Source of the DNA: a virus | Taxonomy: Duplodnaviria; Heunggongvirae; Uroviricota; Caudoviricetes | Length of the DNA stretch: 44,150 bases | Strand: one strand, 5' to 3' | IMG/VR virus record: IMGVR_UViG_3300045988_030968 | Span: 1 to 44,150 of that record | Shown here: piece by piece, positions 278-34,496 of the stretch | Numbering within the stretch: position 1 is the stretch's first letter | How the letters are laid out: each line of letters begins with the position of its first letter | The notes under the pieces: generated by a model | Database searches by the model: none | What the model was told of the DNA's origin: nothing | Seen by the model: the letters and a program-made list of their open reading frames with translations, nothing else | Position numbers and translations under genes: made by a program

Positions 278-2275
278 ATGTCAAGCGGATGCGGTGACGT
301 TTTAAGCCTGGCGGATTTACAAACCGCCAAGAAACATCAGATTTTCGAGGCCGAGGTTATCACTGGCAAATCCGGCGGTGTCGCCGGTGGTGCCGATATT
401 GATTACGCGACAAATCAGGTTACTGGACAGACGCAGAAGACACTCCCCGCCGTGTTGCGTGACACTGGTTTTTCTCCTGTAGCGTGGGACTTTTCTACCG
501 GCGGCACGCTAACTGTTAATGACCGCGACAAAGTTGTTTATGACCCGGTGAGTAAAACGTGGTACTCATACGCGGGTACGCTTCCGGTTGTTGTCCCTGC
601 ATCGTTTAACCCGGTCGGTAACGCTAACTGGAAGCCGCAGACCGACCCATATCTACGCGATGATTTAGCAAACACGGATGATGTGCAACTCGGCGACGCC
701 ATGGTCGGGGTTAAATCTGTACTGGCCGGAGCCGTTGGGAGAACCCTACATAGCAAAGTTAGCGACGTGGTTAGTATTTATGACTTTGGCGCCTCATGGG
801 ATGGTGCATTACACCCGTTAAGTGAACGATTCTCCACGCTAACCGCTGCTCAGATGGTCTATCCGTTTGTAACCAGTCTTGACCAGTCTACCGACTACGC
901 AGCTATCCAGGCAGCGTGCGACTCCAAAAAGACGGTACTAATCCCCAAAGGAACTGGCTTTGTAAATTCAACTATCTATTTCAATAATAGCGTCAGAATC
1001 GTCGGGGAGAACACCGACGGCATCAACCGTGCCCAGTCGTTTATATCCGTTGACGGGAACATATCCCTCTTTGCGCTCGCTCAGGGTAGCTCTTCCGGCG
1101 GGACGAAAATGATTCAACTGTTCATTGACGGACTGTATATCTTCTACAATCCAGGAGATACGCCAACCGTCACAACAGGAAATAGTGGGAAGATAGCATT
1201 TAATTTCTATTCCACTGAAGCCGGTACTACCGGGCTTGAAATGTCTGAGATTAAAAACTGCACCGTACACGGTGCATGGCGCTGTTTCTACGACGCCACC
1301 GGAACTTACCTTACTAAGCTGCAAAACGTATGGGCGCGGAATTGCCACGACGGCTTTATCAAGGCGCTTGGTACGACCATTTTGATGGAGACTTGTTACG
1401 CATCTGGGTGTGTCTCCCCTTATCAATTTGGTGCCGTCATGACGGTAACAATGCTTAATTGTGCGATGGACCAGTCAAGCATTACGACGGCTGGTGGTTC
1501 ATTCGGTGGAGCAGGTGTCCATTTCATTAACTCGCACAGCGTTAACATTGTGGGATTTGATGCGGAAGGAAATATAATTTCCACAGATGGTAGTGGGGAT
1601 GCAACTCTTTTCCATTTTGAGAATACTAATGGCAAAATATCTGGCCTAACGGCTCATCAAAACCAGATGAAAACCGTAGCCCCCGCAGCAAGTGGCACTG
1701 TTTCTTTTATAAAGGCGTCTGGAACAAGCCAGGTTATAATCGATTCTTCTGAGGATGACTTGTCGGAGAACGCAATCCCTTACTCCGGAACGGGAGGATA
1801 CCCTATTACGATATACGCTAAGGATGCAACATCCAGAATCGACGTGTACAGCGGACGTTGGCGCGCTCCTGCAGGCGGTTCACCGGCTTTATCAGTGGTT
1901 AGCCAGGGGAATGTTAACTGGTTCTGCCCGCCGATATCCGGTACTGTTTCTGGCGGGTACACCCAACAAGTATCATCCACTGGTCTACAGACACCTGGTT
2001 TCTACACAGCAAAGGGTGCGCAAGCCGTAAGTGCCAGTACGCAAACAACATTGTTTGCATTGCCAAATATGCAGGGGATGTATCTCATTAGTGTATGGGG
2101 TTCCGGCAGCGGCACAAACTACTCTTCTACACAACTAGCGATGTATGATGGCTCATTAACGCTAACGCCATTAAAAGCTGGGGCATTCATAACATTTTCT
2201 TCATCGGGAAGGAATGTAGCGATAACAAGTCAGGGCACGGGAACATTTAACTGGACGTATACAAAACTAGGATAA
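278..2275 (+). CDS. Tailspike / receptor-binding protein (possible polysaccharide depolymerase)
   Basis: 665 aa; RBS AAAGAGG then ATG 278; N-terminal motif YSYAGTLPVVVPASFNPVGNANWKP typical of tailspike anchor domains; Gly/Ser/Thr/Asn-rich C-terminal region; lower GC than genome. Confidence 0.65.
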   Translation: MSSGCGDVLSLADLQTAKKHQIFEAEVITGKSGGVAGGADIDYATNQVTGQTQKTLPAVLRDTGFSPVAWDFSTGGTLTVNDRDKVVYDPVSKTWYSYAGTLPVVVPASFNPVGNANWKPQTDPYLRDDLANTDDVQLGDAMVGVKSVLAGAVGRTLHSKVSDVVSIYDFGASWDGALHPLSERFSTLTAAQMVYPFVTSLDQSTDYAAIQAACDSKKTVLIPKGTGFVNSTIYFNNSVRIVGENTDGINRAQSFISVDGNISLFALAQGSSSGGTKMIQLFIDGLYIFYNPGDTPTVTTGNSGKIAFNFYSTEAGTTGLEMSEIKNCTVHGAWRCFYDATGTYLTKLQNVWARNCHDGFIKALGTTILMETCYASGCVSPYQFGAVMTVTMLNCAMDQSSITTAGGSFGGAGVHFINSHSVNIVGFDAEGNIISTDGSGDATLFHFENTNGKISGLTAHQNQMKTVAPAASGTVSFIKASGTSQVIIDSSEDDLSENAIPYSGTGGYPITIYAKDATSRIDVYSGRWRAPAGGSPALSVVSQGNVNWFCPPISGTVSGGYTQQVSSTGLQTPGFYTAKGAQAVSASTQTTLFALPNMQGMYLISVWGSGSGTNYSSTQLAMYDGSLTLTPLKAGAFITFSSSGRNVAITSQGTGTFNWTYTKLG

Positions 2276-2280
2276 AACTA

Positions 2281-2303
2281 AGGCCCCTAACGGGGCCTTT
2301 TCT
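2281..2303. terminator. Bidirectional rho-independent terminator between convergent tailspike and helicase operons
   Basis: AGGCCCC-TAAC-GGGGCCT hairpin flanked by T-run on plus and A-run (T-run on minus). Confidence 0.6.
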
Positions 2304-2441
2304 CTACTCTTCTGATAATTTCTCCAGAACAAACGCCAATTGCGCGTTAGCAGCATCTCTCTGTTGCCGTAGTCGTAGAACCTCCTCCTCAAGTTCCTTG
2401 ATACGTTTTTGCAATGCCGGAATCGGGGCTATGATGTTCAT
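2304..2441 (-). CDS. Small coiled-coil protein (45 aa), hypothetical
   Basis: ATG overlaps helicase stop (ATGA); translation MNIIAPIPALQKRIKELEEEVLRLRQQRDAANAQLAFVLEKLSEE; below track size cutoff. Confidence 0.3.
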   Translation of the reverse strand: MNIIAPIPALQKRIKELEEEVLRLRQQRDAANAQLAFVLEKLSEE

Positions 2442-3874
2442 TTCTTACCTCGTCTCTTCATGTAATTAAGCAACTCTTCCTGTACCGATTTCTTCTCGTC
2501 GGTACGCGCGGCAACAACCTCGTCCAGCGTGTCTTTAGCGACGATATGATAGAGGAACACCGGGCGCTCGTGGCCCGCCTGTTTCTGGCGAACCGGGCCA
2601 ATACGCTCGACAACCTGCAAATAGTGCTCAAGGTTCCAGCCTTGCGAAATAAACGCCAGATGATGCCCGCCATCCTGTAAATTCAAACCGTGGCCCGCTG
2701 ACGCAGGGTGTACGCATAAGATTTCTATTTCACCGCGGTTCCACGCTTCCATCTGCTTATTACCTTTAGCGCCTTTGGCGAACGCCTGTGCCTGCGGGAA
2801 TCGCTTAAGAATACGCTCCAGTTCATGCTTAAACTGATAGGCTACCAGTAACGGTGCACCCTGTAACTCCTCGACAATTGACTCAAGCGCGTCCAGTTTC
2901 GTGTCGTGTACTTTCTCCCAGTCTTTCGTTGCTTCTCCGTCTGGCCCTGATACGTATACGGCACCGGATGCAATCTGCAAGCACTTAGACGTCTTCGCCG
3001 CAGCGTTAGCCGCTTCAACCTCCCCGCTTTCCAGTTCCGCGAATAGCTTCTCCTCCATATCGATGTATGCCTGACGTGCTTTCTTCGGCAGGTCGATTTC
3101 GACCGGTACAATAATCGGCGCTTCGCAGCCGAACCACTCGGCGGCGTCAATCGTGAGACTAATGTCTTTCATCCTCTGATGAATCTCATTATCCGCGCCC
3201 GGGCGTACCCGATACCTTCGTGCCATCGCAGATTTGCCTTCCTGTACCGAGTTAAACCAGCGGTCAGTGAATGCTGTGTACGAGGAACCGAGGCGCTCTC
3301 CTGCGTCGATAAACCAGTTCTGACCCCACAAGTCTTTGAGGCCATTCGGCGACGGCGTACCTGTCAGGTTGATGAAACGCTTAACCTTTCCAAATGCCAC
3401 TTTACTAAGTGCCTTTGCTCGCTTGCTACCGCCTGAACGGCTGCGGAAGGATTTAAGCTTCGTGCTCTCGTCGGCAACGATAACAGTAAAAGGCCAGTCG
3501 TCTTTGCCGTAGTAGTCAATCAGCCATTCGATAACTTCATAGTTGGTGCATACCACGTTAGCGTCAGACTCCAGCGCCGCGATGCGGCGCTTCTCTGAGC
3601 CGGTTGCATCGACGACACGCAGACACGGGAAACCCCATTTCTCTTGTTCTGCGGGCCACGTACCAGACGCAACACGCAGTGGGGCGAGGATTAACACGCG
3701 GTCGTCATCATTAAGTTGACCGTTGCGGAACAGTCGGTTAAGCACCCACATTGTCGACGAGGTCTTGCCGCCGCCCATACCGCACCAGATATTGCAACGT
3801 GGGTGCTGTAGCATAAACGACGTCATTATTTTCTGGTATTCGCGCCTTTGAAACTTAGACATGATTGGCCTCAT
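2438..3874 (-). CDS. SNF2-family (SF2) DNA helicase
   Basis: 478 aa; Walker A GMGGGKT, DExx box VADEST, C-terminal helicase motif QVVERIGPVRQ. Confidence 0.85.
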   Translation of the reverse strand: MRPIMSKFQRREYQKIMTSFMLQHPRCNIWCGMGGGKTSSTMWVLNRLFRNGQLNDDDRVLILAPLRVASGTWPAEQEKWGFPCLRVVDATGSEKRRIAALESDANVVCTNYEVIEWLIDYYGKDDWPFTVIVADESTKLKSFRSRSGGSKRAKALSKVAFGKVKRFINLTGTPSPNGLKDLWGQNWFIDAGERLGSSYTAFTDRWFNSVQEGKSAMARRYRVRPGADNEIHQRMKDISLTIDAAEWFGCEAPIIVPVEIDLPKKARQAYIDMEEKLFAELESGEVEAANAAAKTSKCLQIASGAVYVSGPDGEATKDWEKVHDTKLDALESIVEELQGAPLLVAYQFKHELERILKRFPQAQAFAKGAKGNKQMEAWNRGEIEILCVHPASAGHGLNLQDGGHHLAFISQGWNLEHYLQVVERIGPVRQKQAGHERPVFLYHIVAKDTLDEVVAARTDEKKSVQEELLNYMKRRGKK

Positions 3875-4538
3875 AAACTGCTTTTGCGAAACCCCGCGGG
3901 GTAAGGCTGCGGATTGTTTTTGTCCTCACCGATTTACCGCCTAATTTATTGTGTTGGTCAGAGTAACCGCCAACCACGGCGACACATGATTTAACAGGCA
4001 TCACAAAACCGTTACCCGCCCAAATACATGTCTTCTTAGGGTACGCGTCCCGCGGTTTTATGTATTCAGGGAACATTGGATGCGTGTCGTCTTCCGGTAA
4101 ATAGCCACCGTATTCGTATGGATTGAACGAGTAGTCAGGCTTACGCCATAAAGACGAAAGAACGCTAACCGGGTTCTCAATCATATAAGGTACGTTGTAC
4201 TTTTTAGCCAGACGCGCCGCCACTTTGCATGTAATTACGGCCTCTACCTGAAACGTGGGGTTCCTTCTCCGCTTCGTTTCGAAATGCGCAGCACCACTAA
4301 CGGCTAAATCTGTGCAAGGAGGGAACGCGAAAATAATATCCGGCACAACGTCGAAGTCGAATTTATTATCAATCCACGCGTTTGTATAGTGGATGTTCTC
4401 GTGTTCAACTTTTGCGCCCAATCGTGCGTAGTCTCCGTGGTCAGCACCGTCGTAGTTGAAACAATAGCAAGTATGGCCTGCTTCCGCCCACGGTTGGGCC
4501 ATAAGGCCCGAACCGTCAAACAATGACCAGACAATCAT
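3855..4538 (-). CDS. Short C5-cytosine methyltransferase-like protein (catalytic-domain motifs only)
   Basis: 227 aa; motif I LFDGSG, motif IV FPPC, motif VI ENPV in canonical order and spacing; overlaps helicase start by 20 nt. Confidence 0.45.
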   Translation of the reverse strand: MIVWSLFDGSGLMAQPWAEAGHTCYCFNYDGADHGDYARLGAKVEHENIHYTNAWIDNKFDFDVVPDIIFAFPPCTDLAVSGAAHFETKRRRNPTFQVEAVITCKVAARLAKKYNVPYMIENPVSVLSSLWRKPDYSFNPYEYGGYLPEDDTHPMFPEYIKPRDAYPKKTCIWAGNGFVMPVKSCVAVVGGYSDQHNKLGGKSVRTKTIRSLTPRGFAKAVYEANHV

Positions 4539-4726
4539 TTCAGCACCAGAACTAACTCTTTACGTCCGAACGCCGTAACGTTACCAGTTACATCTTCGAT
4601 AACCAGTTTACCGTTTGACTCGACGAAAACAGTATCAACGGCAACAGGACGACGTGTCTTAACGTTGAAAATCATGTCACCCGGTACGATGTCACGTGCT
4701 GGTTTGCGGTCATATTCGTGTTTCAT
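4535..4726 (-). CDS. Hypothetical protein (63 aa)
   Basis: Stop overlaps next start (ATGA); co-oriented in early operon. Confidence 0.5.
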   Translation of the reverse strand: MKHEYDRKPARDIVPGDMIFNVKTRRPVAVDTVFVESNGKLVIEDVTGNVTAFGRKELVLVLK

Positions 4727-4765
4727 TTCTCAATTCCTTATAGTTAAGGCCCCGAAGGGCCTGTA

Positions 4766-5021: not shown

Positions 5022-5336
5022 TTATAATTCCTTATATTGTTGGGGTATGTGCTTACTATAATAGTCCGCTATTAAGGTGTCAACCTGTTTAAACGAACCA
5101 ACGACAAAAACATCCGCACCGCGTTTACGCATCCGCTCGTGCTCTCGTAACTGGTGCGGGTCAGGCTTCGTATTTTCGTCTTTCTTAACTTCGACAAACC
5201 ATATGATGCCGCCGGGGAGAATTACCAGCAGGTCGGGAGCGCCGGAGCGCCCCTCGTACGACAGCTTACGAACTAGGCCCCCCAGGGCCTCGAACCTCTC
5301 TTTTGCATATTTCTGTACGCGGCCCTCTTTAGTCAT
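5022..5336 (-). CDS. VRR-NUC domain nuclease (PD-(D/E)xK)
   Basis: Motifs GAPDLLVILPGG and FVEVKKDENTKPDPHQLREHE; start set at ATG 5336 which overlaps upstream stop (ATGA). Confidence 0.7.
   Translation of the reverse strand: MTKEGRVQKYAKERFEALGGLVRKLSYEGRSGAPDLLVILPGGIIWFVEVKKDENTKPDPHQLREHERMRKRGADVFVVGSFKQVDTLIADYYSKHIPQQYKEL
5055..5083 (-). promoter_or_regulatory. Sigma70-type promoter with palindromic operator, embedded in 3' end of VRR-NUC CDS
   Basis: Minus strand TTGACA, 17-bp spacer, TATAGT; spacer contains TAATAG-N4-CTATTA. Confidence 0.5.
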
Positions 5337-19661: not shown

Positions 19662-19895
19662 ATGGTTACAGATAAAAGCACCCTTAAACTAAAACTACGA
19701 GACGCGGTTAATTGCTCTTTGTATTCATGTACAGATGCCGAGCAGCGTGAACTTGTAAAACTAACTATAGTAGAGTTCTTCTCTGCAATAGGCATGGAGG
19801 ACAGCGATTACGTCGAAGTGCTTTCTAACTGTGGCGGATTAGATGCAGATACGGACGACGCGGTAGACGAGCTGATTAAGGAATTTGACCAATGA
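19662..19895 (+). CDS. Hypothetical small acidic protein
   Basis: 77 aa; first ORF after promoter 19600. Confidence 0.5.
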   Translation: MVTDKSTLKLKLRDAVNCSLYSCTDAEQRELVKLTIVEFFSAIGMEDSDYVEVLSNCGGLDADTDDAVDELIKEFDQ

Positions 19896-20041
19896 AAATC
19901 ACTGATATCGAAGCATTCAAAGACGCACAACTGATGGCACGCATCGCCGTTGGCAACCTGGGTGGAAGCATTCCTGCGGACTCGTTCTGGGCCGCCGCGA
20001 TGCAGGCACTGAAAGCAGCTTATGCAGGAGAGAAGAAATGA
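19892..20041 (+). CDS. Hypothetical micro-protein (49 aa)
   Basis: ATGA overlaps at both ends; ends ...AYAGEKK. Confidence 0.4.
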   Translation: MKITDIEAFKDAQLMARIAVGNLGGSIPADSFWAAAMQALKAAYAGEKK

Positions 20042-33327: not shown

Positions 33328-34496
33328 ATATGGCTACAACTCCTTTTAAGGGCGCGACTACCGCGCAATTCTATGTGGCGGAAGTCACCCCGGGCGTAAC
33401 ACCGGCTAACCCTGTCTGGTCGCCGTTGCGTAACACTGGCGGTGTTCCTGCTATCACCCGCGACACGCTGACCTCCAACGAACTGGACGGCAGCCGTGAA
33501 ACTACATCCATCCGCACCGGTAACAAACAGGTTAGCGGTGAATACGCGATCGAGCTTAGCTCGAAAAGCCAGGACGACTGGCTGGCGGGTGCTTTAGGCT
33601 CTACGTGGCAATCAGGTGTATCCTTGACTGACCTGTCAATTACCGTCGCACCGGCGGGCAAGACGTTCACCCGTGCTGATGGCAGCTTTATTTCTGATGG
33701 CGTTGAAGTAGGCGACCTGATCGCGTTCACCGACTTAACGGGCGACAACGCTAAACCGTTCATCGTAACCGAGGTAAGTGCGACTGTTGTCACAGGCGCC
33801 GGCATCCAACATACTCTGACCACTGAGACCGTAACAACCGACGCTAAAACCGGCGACAAACTGGAAACTGGTAACGCGTGTAAGACGTTCTCTATCCTCA
33901 CCTGGTACAAAGGCCAGTGCGGCGGGGCCGACGCGTACACGCTAACCAAAGGCGTGGAAGTTTCCGGTTTTACCGTGGAGCAGGCCGTTAACGCGATGGT
34001 AACGGGCAGCTTCCCGTTCATCGGGCGCAGCCAGGAGATTCTCGCGACGCCGCCGTCTGGTTCTGACTTCTCCTCTGTTACGTTTACTGATGAGCCGTTC
34101 TCCTCGGTCGACGTTTCTGTGTTCGACGGTTCTACGCCGTTGCGTTGCGATAGCCTGACCATCACCAACGACAACAGTGCATCCGCGCAGTTCGAACTTG
34201 GCAACACTAACGTGGCCTTTGTGGAACGTAGCCGCGCGGCTAACACCTTCTCCATCTCTGGTAAACTGTACGACATGGCGATGATTCAGAAGTTTATCAA
34301 CGAGCAGCAGGTAGAGATTAACTCTATTCTGGCTGGGGTAAACGGGGCTATGTCTTTCAGTTTGAAACGTGCAGAGCTTACGGCGGTTACACCTGAGATT
34401 GGCGGGCCTGAGTCAATCACTCAGAGCATAGAAGGACAGTCCACAGGCAATCAATATCAATCCTCTATCGTAATTCAGCGTATCACCTACGCATAA
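33324..34496 (+). CDS. Major tail protein
   Basis: 390 aa, Thr/Ser/Gly-rich; upstream of chaperone and tape measure genes. Confidence 0.6.
   Translation: MNMATTPFKGATTAQFYVAEVTPGVTPANPVWSPLRNTGGVPAITRDTLTSNELDGSRETTSIRTGNKQVSGEYAIELSSKSQDDWLAGALGSTWQSGVSLTDLSITVAPAGKTFTRADGSFISDGVEVGDLIAFTDLTGDNAKPFIVTEVSATVVTGAGIQHTLTTETVTTDAKTGDKLETGNACKTFSILTWYKGQCGGADAYTLTKGVEVSGFTVEQAVNAMVTGSFPFIGRSQEILATPPSGSDFSSVTFTDEPFSSVDVSVFDGSTPLRCDSLTITNDNSASAQFELGNTNVAFVERSRAANTFSISGKLYDMAMIQKFINEQQVEINSILAGVNGAMSFSLKRAELTAVTPEIGGPESITQSIEGQSTGNQYQSSIVIQRITYA

Follow-up and report, generated by a model that had tools for sequence, protein, structure and literature searches.

A short Dcm-like protein of a Kagunavirus-like phage as a probable C5-cytosine DNA methyltransferase

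Identification of the gene and its family

We analyzed a stretch of phage DNA of 44 150 nt (IMG/VR record IMGVR_UViG_3300045988_030968, positions 1 to 44 150), referred to below as the window; it is a Kagunavirus-like siphophage (Guernseyvirinae). The open reading frame (ORF) at positions 3855-4538 of its minus strand (ATG at 4538-4536, TAA at 3857-3855) encodes a 227-aa protein that very probably is an active orphan DNA cytosine-5 methyltransferase, dependent on S-adenosylmethionine (SAM) and belonging to the Dcm-like family of phages (PHROG 757). The activity of the window protein is predicted by analogy with a characterized homologue, the Dcm of phage K42. The gene is of an already known kind: it belongs to an annotated family with an experimentally tested prototype.

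The protein matched the profile phrog_757 ‘DNA methyltransferase’ with E-value 9.6e-86 and 287.9 bits (residues 1-226 aligned to positions 15-219 of the 247-position profile), and in tblastn searches homologues appeared in at least 1517 phage records. Given these matches, the 227-aa ORF, which an initial annotation had delineated without database searches, is real far beyond chance. Escherichia phage SZH-1 is ∼91% identical over the 3.6 kb that surround the gene, and its counterpart gene carries the annotation ‘DNA cytosine methyltransferase’, and copies with 95-97% identity are already present in GenBank, named DNA cytosine methyltransferase or Dcm.

A HMMER profile search against 1.84 billion cluster representatives (E<1e-3) gave 2027 family clusters at 50% identity, and a word-indexed search gave 7187 clusters at 90% identity. 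The family gene was found in Kagunavirus, Jerseyvirus, Dhillonvirus, Drexlerviridae including Webervirus, and rV5-like myoviruses, as well as in T4-like Krischvirus and in Vibrio and Arthrobacter phages. Nearly all full-length members have 205-260 aa; the short length is therefore the norm of the family rather than a result of truncation.

When ten longer members were scanned with Pfam, we saw one Dam-type fusion, one HNH fusion and eight proteins without a match. The former (P0250, 563 aa) combines the family domain (residues 5-177) with a complete D12-class N6-adenine DNA methyltransferase (PF02086, 2.5e-48); in the latter (P0251, 348 aa) an HNH_2 endonuclease domain follows the family domain. 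Both are apparent fusions. Among the matches there were also 37 records labelled ‘Campylobacter phage’, 22-47 kb long and unannotated; homologues in three of them, MG065663 (A134), MG065688 (A110b) and MG065638 (A15a), are 45-75% identical. Such records may be mislabelled or contaminant coliphage-like sequences.

The characterized homologue

The strongest evidence for activity is published work on retron Ec86 (bioRxiv 10.1101/2023.08.16.553469, the source of all experimental results in this paragraph; a peer-reviewed version is Wang et al., Cell Rep 2024;43:114857). Phage K42 is a strain of KarlJaspers/Bas06, its genome being 95.4% identical to that of Bas06, and K42 mutants escaping Ec86 were all mutated in a gene of 711 bp whose product is a ‘Dcm-like C5 cytosine methyltransferase’. 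Expression of this gene was toxic only with Ec86 present. Liquid chromatography coupled to mass spectrometry (LC-MS) against a 5-methylcytosine (5mC) standard detected high 5mC in the multicopy single-stranded DNA (msDNA) of the retron with wild-type K42 Dcm and no rise with the C82A/E128A/K175A/K176A mutant; the enzyme also methylated msDNA on its own, when supplied from a plasmid. The empty-vector control in dcm+ MG1655 had low msDNA 5mC and no toxicity. Altering the CCTGG in the msDNA stem-loop abolished Ec86 defence, which was lost in all three variants, AATGG, ACTGG and CATGG. The enzyme was encoded by 34 of the 35 Ec86-sensitive phages.

The KarlJaspers gene (MZ501090, bas06_0055) has 711 bp and is annotated under the same name as the K42 gene; C82, E128, K175 and K176 were located in its product by direct count. 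The window protein is 56% identical to this product (E-value 3e-95, residues 2-225 against 5-234), and the four residues align to C75, E121, K168 and K169 with a constant offset of 7. Protein P0072, considered as the K42/KarlJaspers protein for having the same C82/E128/K175/K176 numbering, was rejected, as its best match is Salmonella phage Sasha (87.5%).

Conservation was counted over 102 divergent representatives of the family. The positions of the quadruple mutant are largely fixed: C75 is conserved in 100 of 102, E121 in 101 and K168 in 97, while the K169 position holds K in 47 and R in a further 20; the neighbours of E121 are nearly as constant (N122 in 96, P123 in 100). Near-invariant positions of the N-terminal half are G21, the Asp of motif II (N28 in the sub-family of the window), F72, P73, C75, G82, K89 and A100; those of the rest of the protein are E121, N122, P123, R132, P140, D164, Y166, K168, T170, W173, P181, R210, P214 and G216. 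As judged from this alignment, the catalytic residues are under selection.

The initial annotation had left two roles side by side, a minimal DNA-modifying enzyme and a degenerate domain. The former is favoured, as a homologue with 56% identity makes 5mC in vivo and needs the equivalents of C75, E121, K168 and K169 to do so.

Motifs and domain architecture

The following elements of the protein were located, all on the minus strand.

4506-4523, minus strand: motif I, LFDGSG, aa 6-11, SAM-binding loop that follows strand beta-1 (Pfam and hhalign alignment to motif I of M.HhaI/M.HaeIII)
4314-4325, minus strand: motif IV, FPPC, aa 72-75, with catalytic Cys75 (codon tgc, 4316-4314; codons checked)
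4167-4178, minus strand: motif VI, ENPV, aa 121-124, with Glu121 (conservation; equivalent to E128 of K42 Dcm)
4020-4052, minus strand: block RDAYPKKTCIW, aa 163-173, at the motif VIII position (family conservation; strand 170-175 in the AlphaFold2 model)
3915-4013, minus strand: vestigial target-recognition region, aa 176-208, ∼33 aa (length from motif positions)
3864-3914, minus strand: C-terminal block IRSLTPRGFAKAVYEAN, aa 209-225, the sole counterpart of motifs IX and X (conservation, hhalign)

Motifs I, IV and VI stand in canonical order and align to those of M.HhaI and M.HaeIII, whose reference sequences were exact against PDB. The spacing is close to that of M.HhaI as well (66 aa from I to IV and 46 aa from IV to VI, against 62 and 38). 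The three motifs described in the initial annotation are borne out. Across the family the motifs are somewhat loose: for motif I the consensus is the degenerate [LF][FY]D.[ST]G; motif IV reads FP[PVED]C, the proline beside the Cys not being fixed; and motif VI has P in place of the usual V.

The C-terminal part is where the protein departs from the canonical plan. The family invariants D164, Y166, K168, T170 and W173 occupy the place where QxRxR would be. The next region is ∼33 aa long, against ∼90-100 aa between motifs VIII and IX of M.HhaI (hhalign); it holds the conserved P181 and a KLGGKS..TK block, while distant members show a variant, H..PPG..R. Only residues 176-208 are available for a separate target-recognition domain, canonically ∼80-200 aa between motifs VIII and IX, and no such domain is present. 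M.HhaI has 327 aa and M.HaeIII 330 aa; with ∼100 aa less, the protein is indeed unusually short and leaves almost no room for target recognition, as had been noticed in the first reading of the sequence. The conserved C-terminal block is IRSLTPRGFAKAV and the protein ends 6 residues beyond, where both motifs IX and X were expected; R210, P214 and G216 in this block are at least 90% conserved. The program hhalign places the block on motif IX of M.HhaI, RKLHPRECARV, though by eye it fits motif X (IGNAVPxxLAxxI) about equally well; in the AlphaFold2 model the block forms the terminal helix 215-225.

Profile and structural evidence for the enzyme class

The C5-methyltransferase catalytic-domain fold is clear in the predicted structure. 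The AlphaFold2 model, built from a 50-sequence alignment, is a single domain with pLDDT 91.7 and pTM 0.90, and the top 50 Foldseek hits were DNMT3A/B/C. At the sequence level, hhalign comparison with M.HhaI alone aligned motifs I-IV only (probability 2%), while the 102-sequence family profile against M.HhaI and M.HaeIII spanned residues 1-221 with E-value 1.7e-4.

Several observations weigh against assignment to this class. The score against Pfam PF00145 was 16.1 bits with a cut-off of 22, and the match covered only residues 3-102 (motifs I-IV). There was no match of the protein in NCBIfam, and among PDB sequences neither the protein nor the 50-sequence family profile found a C5-methyltransferase at E<10; the sole PDB match, an XisI-like sequence at E-value 0.69, was dismissed as spurious. 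The hhalign probability for the family profile was 49-74%, the value of 49% belonging to the alignment that puts the last block on motif IX. QxRxR of motif VIII is absent from the protein, and hhalign leaves it unaligned; of motifs IX and X the protein has only one. The acidic position of motif II is N28 here, while D occupies it in 93 of the 102 representatives; still, the active K42/Bas06 enzyme likewise has N at this position.

A Pfam scan of ten other family members gave a similar picture: three close ones scored 24.7-28.5 bits, with the N-terminal part only, and the seven distant ones had no PF00145 match. The profile search that the initial annotation had named as a check thus gave a divided answer, with the family model PHROG 757 on one side and a PF00145 score under threshold with no NCBIfam or PDB match on the other. 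The class itself was named rightly: the predicted fold and the published activity of the homologue both point to a C5-cytosine-methyltransferase-like protein, in spite of the near absence of a sequence-level profile match.

Gene neighbourhood and the SNF2-related helicase

The gene is part of a replication string on the minus strand, made up in order of family A DNA polymerase, VRR-NUC nuclease, two ORFs of 84 and 63 aa, the methyltransferase, the SNF2-related helicase, an ORF of 45 aa and a hairpin terminator. The features around the methyltransferase gene are as follows.

5055-5083, minus strand: candidate sigma-70-like promoter TTGACA-17-TATAGT, 11 of 12 matches (consensus scan only)
4535-4726, minus strand: upstream 63-aa ORF; its TGA overlaps the methyltransferase ATG (ATGA, 4535-4538)
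3855-4538, minus strand: phage Dcm-like C5-cytosine DNA methyltransferase CDS, PHROG 757 family, 227 aa
2438-3862, minus strand: downstream SNF2-related helicase, 474 aa from ATG 3862, longest ORF from 3874 (PF00176, 3.7e-12)
2280-2299, minus strand: GC-rich hairpin with T-run closing the operon, common to the convergent tailspike gene with stop at 2275 (terminator-like site, ORF layout)

The candidate promoter lies ∼35 nt upstream of the 84-aa ORF and, if it acts as one, would stand at the head of the string 84-aa ORF, 63-aa ORF, methyltransferase, helicase. The 63-aa ORF is hypothetical in the SZH-1 annotation.

The initial annotation had described a 20-nt overlap between the methyltransferase stop and the helicase start. 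The overlap is real, while its length was counted from the first in-frame ATG (3874). We consider ATG 3862 to be the more likely start, since a GAGG at 3872-3869 stands before it with a 6-nt spacer, the SZH-1 annotation has its start there, and the helicases of relatives without the methyltransferase (e.g. BUCT789) use the same ATG (MSKF...); the overlap is then 8 nt, ATGTCTAA. With either length the genes form one translationally coupled string, and co-expression with the helicase, as proposed earlier, is a fair inference.

Coupling to an SNF2 helicase is a feature of this locus and not a property of the family. A SNF2 gene adjoined the methyltransferase gene in 7 of 80 sampled IMG/VR loci, and direct adjacency was seen only in Kagunavirus and Dhillonvirus; this count rules out a conserved helicase partnership as a family trait. 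Codons of the two genes overlap in both genera, with opposite gene order: in Kagunavirus the methyltransferase precedes the helicase, and in Dhillonvirus an orthologous helicase (65-67% identity) precedes the methyltransferase. Elsewhere the neighbours differ. T1-like phages have a different helicase 0.7-1.1 kb downstream, rV5-like phages an AAA ATPase gene directly downstream and aquatic podovirus-like contigs a primase-helicase ∼1.3 kb downstream, while small genes surround it in one T4-like and one Arthrobacter phage.

Within Kagunavirus the methyltransferase gene is accessory. Henuyfy11N and BUCT789 keep the helicase and lack the methyltransferase. The 63-aa ORF of BUCT789 directly abuts the helicase (34298-34301), so the methyltransferase is a clean presence/absence cassette of ∼680 nt (3863-4534 in the window); Henuyfy11N lacks the 63-aa ORF along with the methyltransferase and has a 227-nt gap (19786-20012) in that place. 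Placement in the replication module, with the right timing that it brings, accounts best for the neighbourhood.

Some further observations concern this region and its counterparts. The 45-aa ORF (2304-2441, minus strand) overlaps the helicase stop and is hypothetical in relatives; its coiled-coil-type Pfam matches are weak and under threshold (DUF1192, 8.5e-5). A perfect GC-rich hairpin (AGGCCCCGAAGGGCCT) at 4747-4762 lies between the 84-aa and 63-aa ORFs, just 5′ of the ribosome-binding site of the latter; it is not a canonical terminator, as no T-run follows it on the coding (minus) strand. In Dhillonvirus (e.g. Pubbukkers, 2065-4516) an overlapping HNH endonuclease gene follows the methyltransferase, and a small Dam-type methyltransferase gene occurs ∼0.85-1.1 kb further along. 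Parts of two very large BFVD proteins of uncultured phages, A0A6J5NPY6_2 (1126 aa) and A0A6J5SE15_1, resemble the methyltransferase fold (24-28% identity, TMq 0.63-0.66); the latter bears a helicase name, and there may thus be methyltransferase-helicase fusions of DarB type.

There is no Dam gene in the window phage. GATC is strongly avoided in the window (1-44150), with 7 sites against ∼160 expected (maximal-order Markov model, z ∼ −17); its Kagunavirus relatives are likewise poor in GATC (4-10 sites), and Dam-encoding KP36 has 302 sites against 318 expected. The window is also depleted in CTAG, CATG and the 6-bp palindromes GGCGCC, AAGCTT and GGTACC, with no site at all for CGGCCG and AGTACT.

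Proposed function and alternative explanations

In the mechanism we propose, the protein keeps a Rossmann-type catalytic core, with the motif I loop, catalytic Cys75 in FPPC and Glu121 in ENP, and carries a D-x-Y-x-K-K-T strand at the place of QxRxR, a target-recognition domain cut down to ∼33 residues and one C-terminal block standing for motifs IX/X. It would be made together with the replication genes from the overlapping string 63-aa ORF, methyltransferase, SNF2 helicase and, if it acts as the homologue does, would methylate replicating phage DNA post-replicatively at C5 with SAM as donor. As its site, CCWGG is the most likely choice, having been put forward for the homologue. Methylation might protect the phage DNA from restriction of EcoRII type, or from similar systems sensitive to methylation, in hosts whose Dcm is missing or acts too slowly. 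The cost would be that the same activity, as demonstrated for the homologue, methylates msDNA of retron Ec86/Eco1 and leads to abortive infection. In the literature Dam methylation of msDNA is cited as a trigger of other retrons.

Assignment of the CCWGG site is by analogy: it comes from the name Dcm, from the msDNA mutants and from the EcoRII resistance of phage KP36. The 2013 KP36 paper reported that KP36 DNA was uncut by EcoRII at 155 CCWGG sites; this was put down to host Dcm, and the phage was stated to have no cytosine methyltransferase. We found, though, that KP36_073 (JF501022, 47552-48244, minus strand), annotated as ‘hypothetical protein’, is a homologue of the window protein with 46% identity (E-value 3e-64). 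The resistance of KP36 DNA is, thus, circumstantial support for activity of the enzyme.

Still, the basis for CCWGG is analogy with host Dcm together with the msDNA mutants. In the BASEL study, no simple link emerged between methyltransferase genes of this kind and resistance to restriction. For the C5-methyltransferases of Kagunavirus, Dhillonvirus and Drexlerviridae the literature on phage methylome or restriction phenotype yielded only statements of genome-announcement style and the BASEL remark. Nor did CCWGG counts help: two Kagunaviruses that carry the gene gave observed/expected ratios of 0.69 and 0.78, two that lack it gave 0.71 and 0.68, and KP36 gave 0.99, i.e. no differential avoidance between genomes with and without the gene, in a comparison that has little power with few and closely related genomes. 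A protective role remains plausible. TET-linked hypermodification was rejected on the annotation of the close relative SZH-1, where there is no TET or glycosyltransferase gene and no DNA-modification gene other than the methyltransferase.

A possibility worth keeping in mind, although we would not bet on it, is that the same active enzyme methylates DNA at a site other than CCWGG. The site could be shorter or relaxed (e.g. CC, CCW or CWG); the enzyme could prefer hairpin, single-stranded or replicating DNA, or acquire specificity by dimerizing as DNMT3A does. The short stretch of ∼33 aa that separates the C-terminal block from the place of motif VIII speaks for this, and so do the best structural neighbours, DNMT3A/B, which have the smallest target-recognition domain, form dimers and read a 2-bp site. 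In dcm+ MG1655 the msDNA carried little 5mC and Ec86 stayed silent until the phage enzyme was expressed; given the low 5mC of this control, the phage enzyme may differ from host Dcm in its site or in the substrate it prefers, and if the true site does differ, triggering of Ec86 by the phage enzyme and not by dcm+ hosts would be explained. Loss of defence in the AATGG, ACTGG and CATGG variants cannot separate recognition by the methyltransferase from sensing by the effector, and the lack of a simple restriction phenotype in BASEL is in line with another site as well. On the other side, both the published authors and the BASEL annotators call the enzyme Dcm-like, and KP36 DNA was refractory to EcoRII, though host Dcm could account for this. 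Many such phages are, moreover, propagated on mcrBC+ K-12 hosts, and McrBC cuts R-5mC; a very relaxed enzyme would probably make McrBC targets. A more specific version, in which the protein is the smallest working C5 architecture and obtains specificity from DNMT3-like dimerization, from hairpin or fork DNA (such as msDNA stem-loops) or from the SNF2 motor, seems to us rather doubtful.

Involvement of the motor brings up an improbable but definite alternative, that the methyltransferase and the SNF2 helicase are a functional pair in which the ATPase loads or moves the enzyme, as in fused DNMT5, and so makes up for the missing target-recognition domain. The stop/start overlap, the overlapping orthologous helicase gene of Dhillonvirus in opposite order and the AAA ATPase gene directly downstream in rV5-like phages fit such a pair. 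A small possibility of a functional link also stays with A0A6J5SE15_1 (BFVD; 1397 aa, uncultured phage, ‘Helicase/UvrB, N-terminal’), the N-terminal part of which resembles the fold (28% identity, TMq 0.66). Yet adjacency is confined to 7 of 80 loci; T1-like, T4-like and Arthrobacter phages carry the gene among small early genes; natural Kagunaviruses keep the helicase and lose the methyltransferase by a clean indel; K42 enzyme methylated msDNA when expressed alone; and placement in the replication module explains the neighbourhood with no interaction.

The altered elements of the SAM pocket, with one of motifs IX/X missing and motif I degenerate family-wide, might be read as signs of a different reaction: transfer of a group other than methyl (e.g. 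carboxymethyl from Cx-SAM, which E. coli makes) or a substrate other than DNA (tRNA, as for DNMT2). We regard this as very unlikely, given that LC-MS found 5mC on msDNA with the 56%-identical homologue, that in one member the family domain is apparently joined to a DNA adenine methyltransferase, and that 8yf3 is an ordinary PF00145-type enzyme (match to M.HaeIII, 3e-23), no closer to the family than M.HhaI. Hardly any credence is left for a catalytically dead domain with a structural or regulatory role of DNMT3L kind. The sub-threshold Pfam score, the lack of QxRxR, N28 for the usual Asp and the truncated C-terminus would agree with it, and Burke et al. (PMC8256090) found that most phage C5-methyltransferase-like proteins whose motifs VIII-X are disrupted had no activity in E. 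coli. But the catalytic Cys, the ENP and the Lys strand are almost invariant in ∼100 divergent representatives, and the active homologue depends on those very residues and shares the N at the motif II position; the degenerate domain of the initial annotation is, thus, disfavoured.

Implications for annotation

We suggest that the gene be named phage Dcm-like C5-cytosine DNA methyltransferase and be treated as an accessory gene. The family is unseen by Pfam and NCBIfam and its members are often called ‘hypothetical’ (KP36, Stevie, GEC-3S); surveys of m5C methyltransferases based on PF00145 therefore miss it. Presence of the gene predicts sensitivity to hosts with retron Ec86/Eco1, such as E. 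coli BL21. The family also illustrates the extent to which a C5-methyltransferase may be cut down without losing its function, which is relevant to enzyme engineering and bears on target recognition without a target-recognition domain.

Comparison with known systems

The canonical enzymes M.HhaI, M.HaeIII and E. coli Dcm (PF00145) have the same order of motif I, catalytic Cys and EN(V/P), with similar spacing, and presumably the same chemistry. They differ from the window protein in having a target-recognition region of ∼90 or more aa (against ∼33), QxRxR (against DxYxKKT) and both motifs IX and X (against one block). The window protein is under the Pfam gathering score, and most family members have no Pfam match. 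E. coli Dcm has 472 aa, i.e. 245 aa more than the window protein.

The catalytic domain of DNMT3A/B is similar in SLFDG of motif I, in PCxDL(S/A) after the catalytic Cys (sequence verified) and in a very small target-recognition domain. Identity to the window protein is, however, 13-17% with a TM-score of only 0.4-0.55, and DNMT3 possesses motif IX as well as motif X and acts as a dimer/tetramer with regulatory partners. We saw no evidence of common descent of the window protein and DNMT3 closer than superfamily, and none of oligomerization of the window protein. An obligate and conserved link, physical or genetic, to an SNF2 ATPase, as would mark SNF2-coupled methyltransferases of DNMT5 kind, is not seen in the family of the window protein, where the prototype is active alone.

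Two other groups of phage proteins may be compared. The TET-associated phage C5-methyltransferases of clades III-VI (Burke et al. 2021, PMC8256090) likewise keep the Cys of motif IV and have motifs VIII-X lacking or disrupted. They differ in being Pfam-annotated, in standing beside genes of TET/JBP dioxygenases and in being mostly inactive in E. coli, whereas the Dcm-like family has an active member and the window phage type has no TET gene. The small phage Dam methyltransferases (PF05869; KP36_058, Pubbukkers gp33) are, like the window gene, compact orphan accessory genes of replication modules in the same phage groups and often share a genome with the Dcm-like gene; they belong to the N6-adenine class, with another fold topology and GATC as target.

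The Dcm of K42/KarlJaspers comes from a Drexlerviridae (Hanrivervirus) phage and not from a Kagunavirus, and the KarlJaspers gene stands among small genes ∼0.7 kb upstream of a putative helicase, without the SNF2 overlap of the window. The two proteins are nonetheless of the same size class (236 and 227 aa), are both best modelled on DNMT3A and share one sub-type, with SLFDGSG, CFNYD.ADHGDY, FPPCTDL, IENPV, YxKKTC and IRSLTPRGFA in common.

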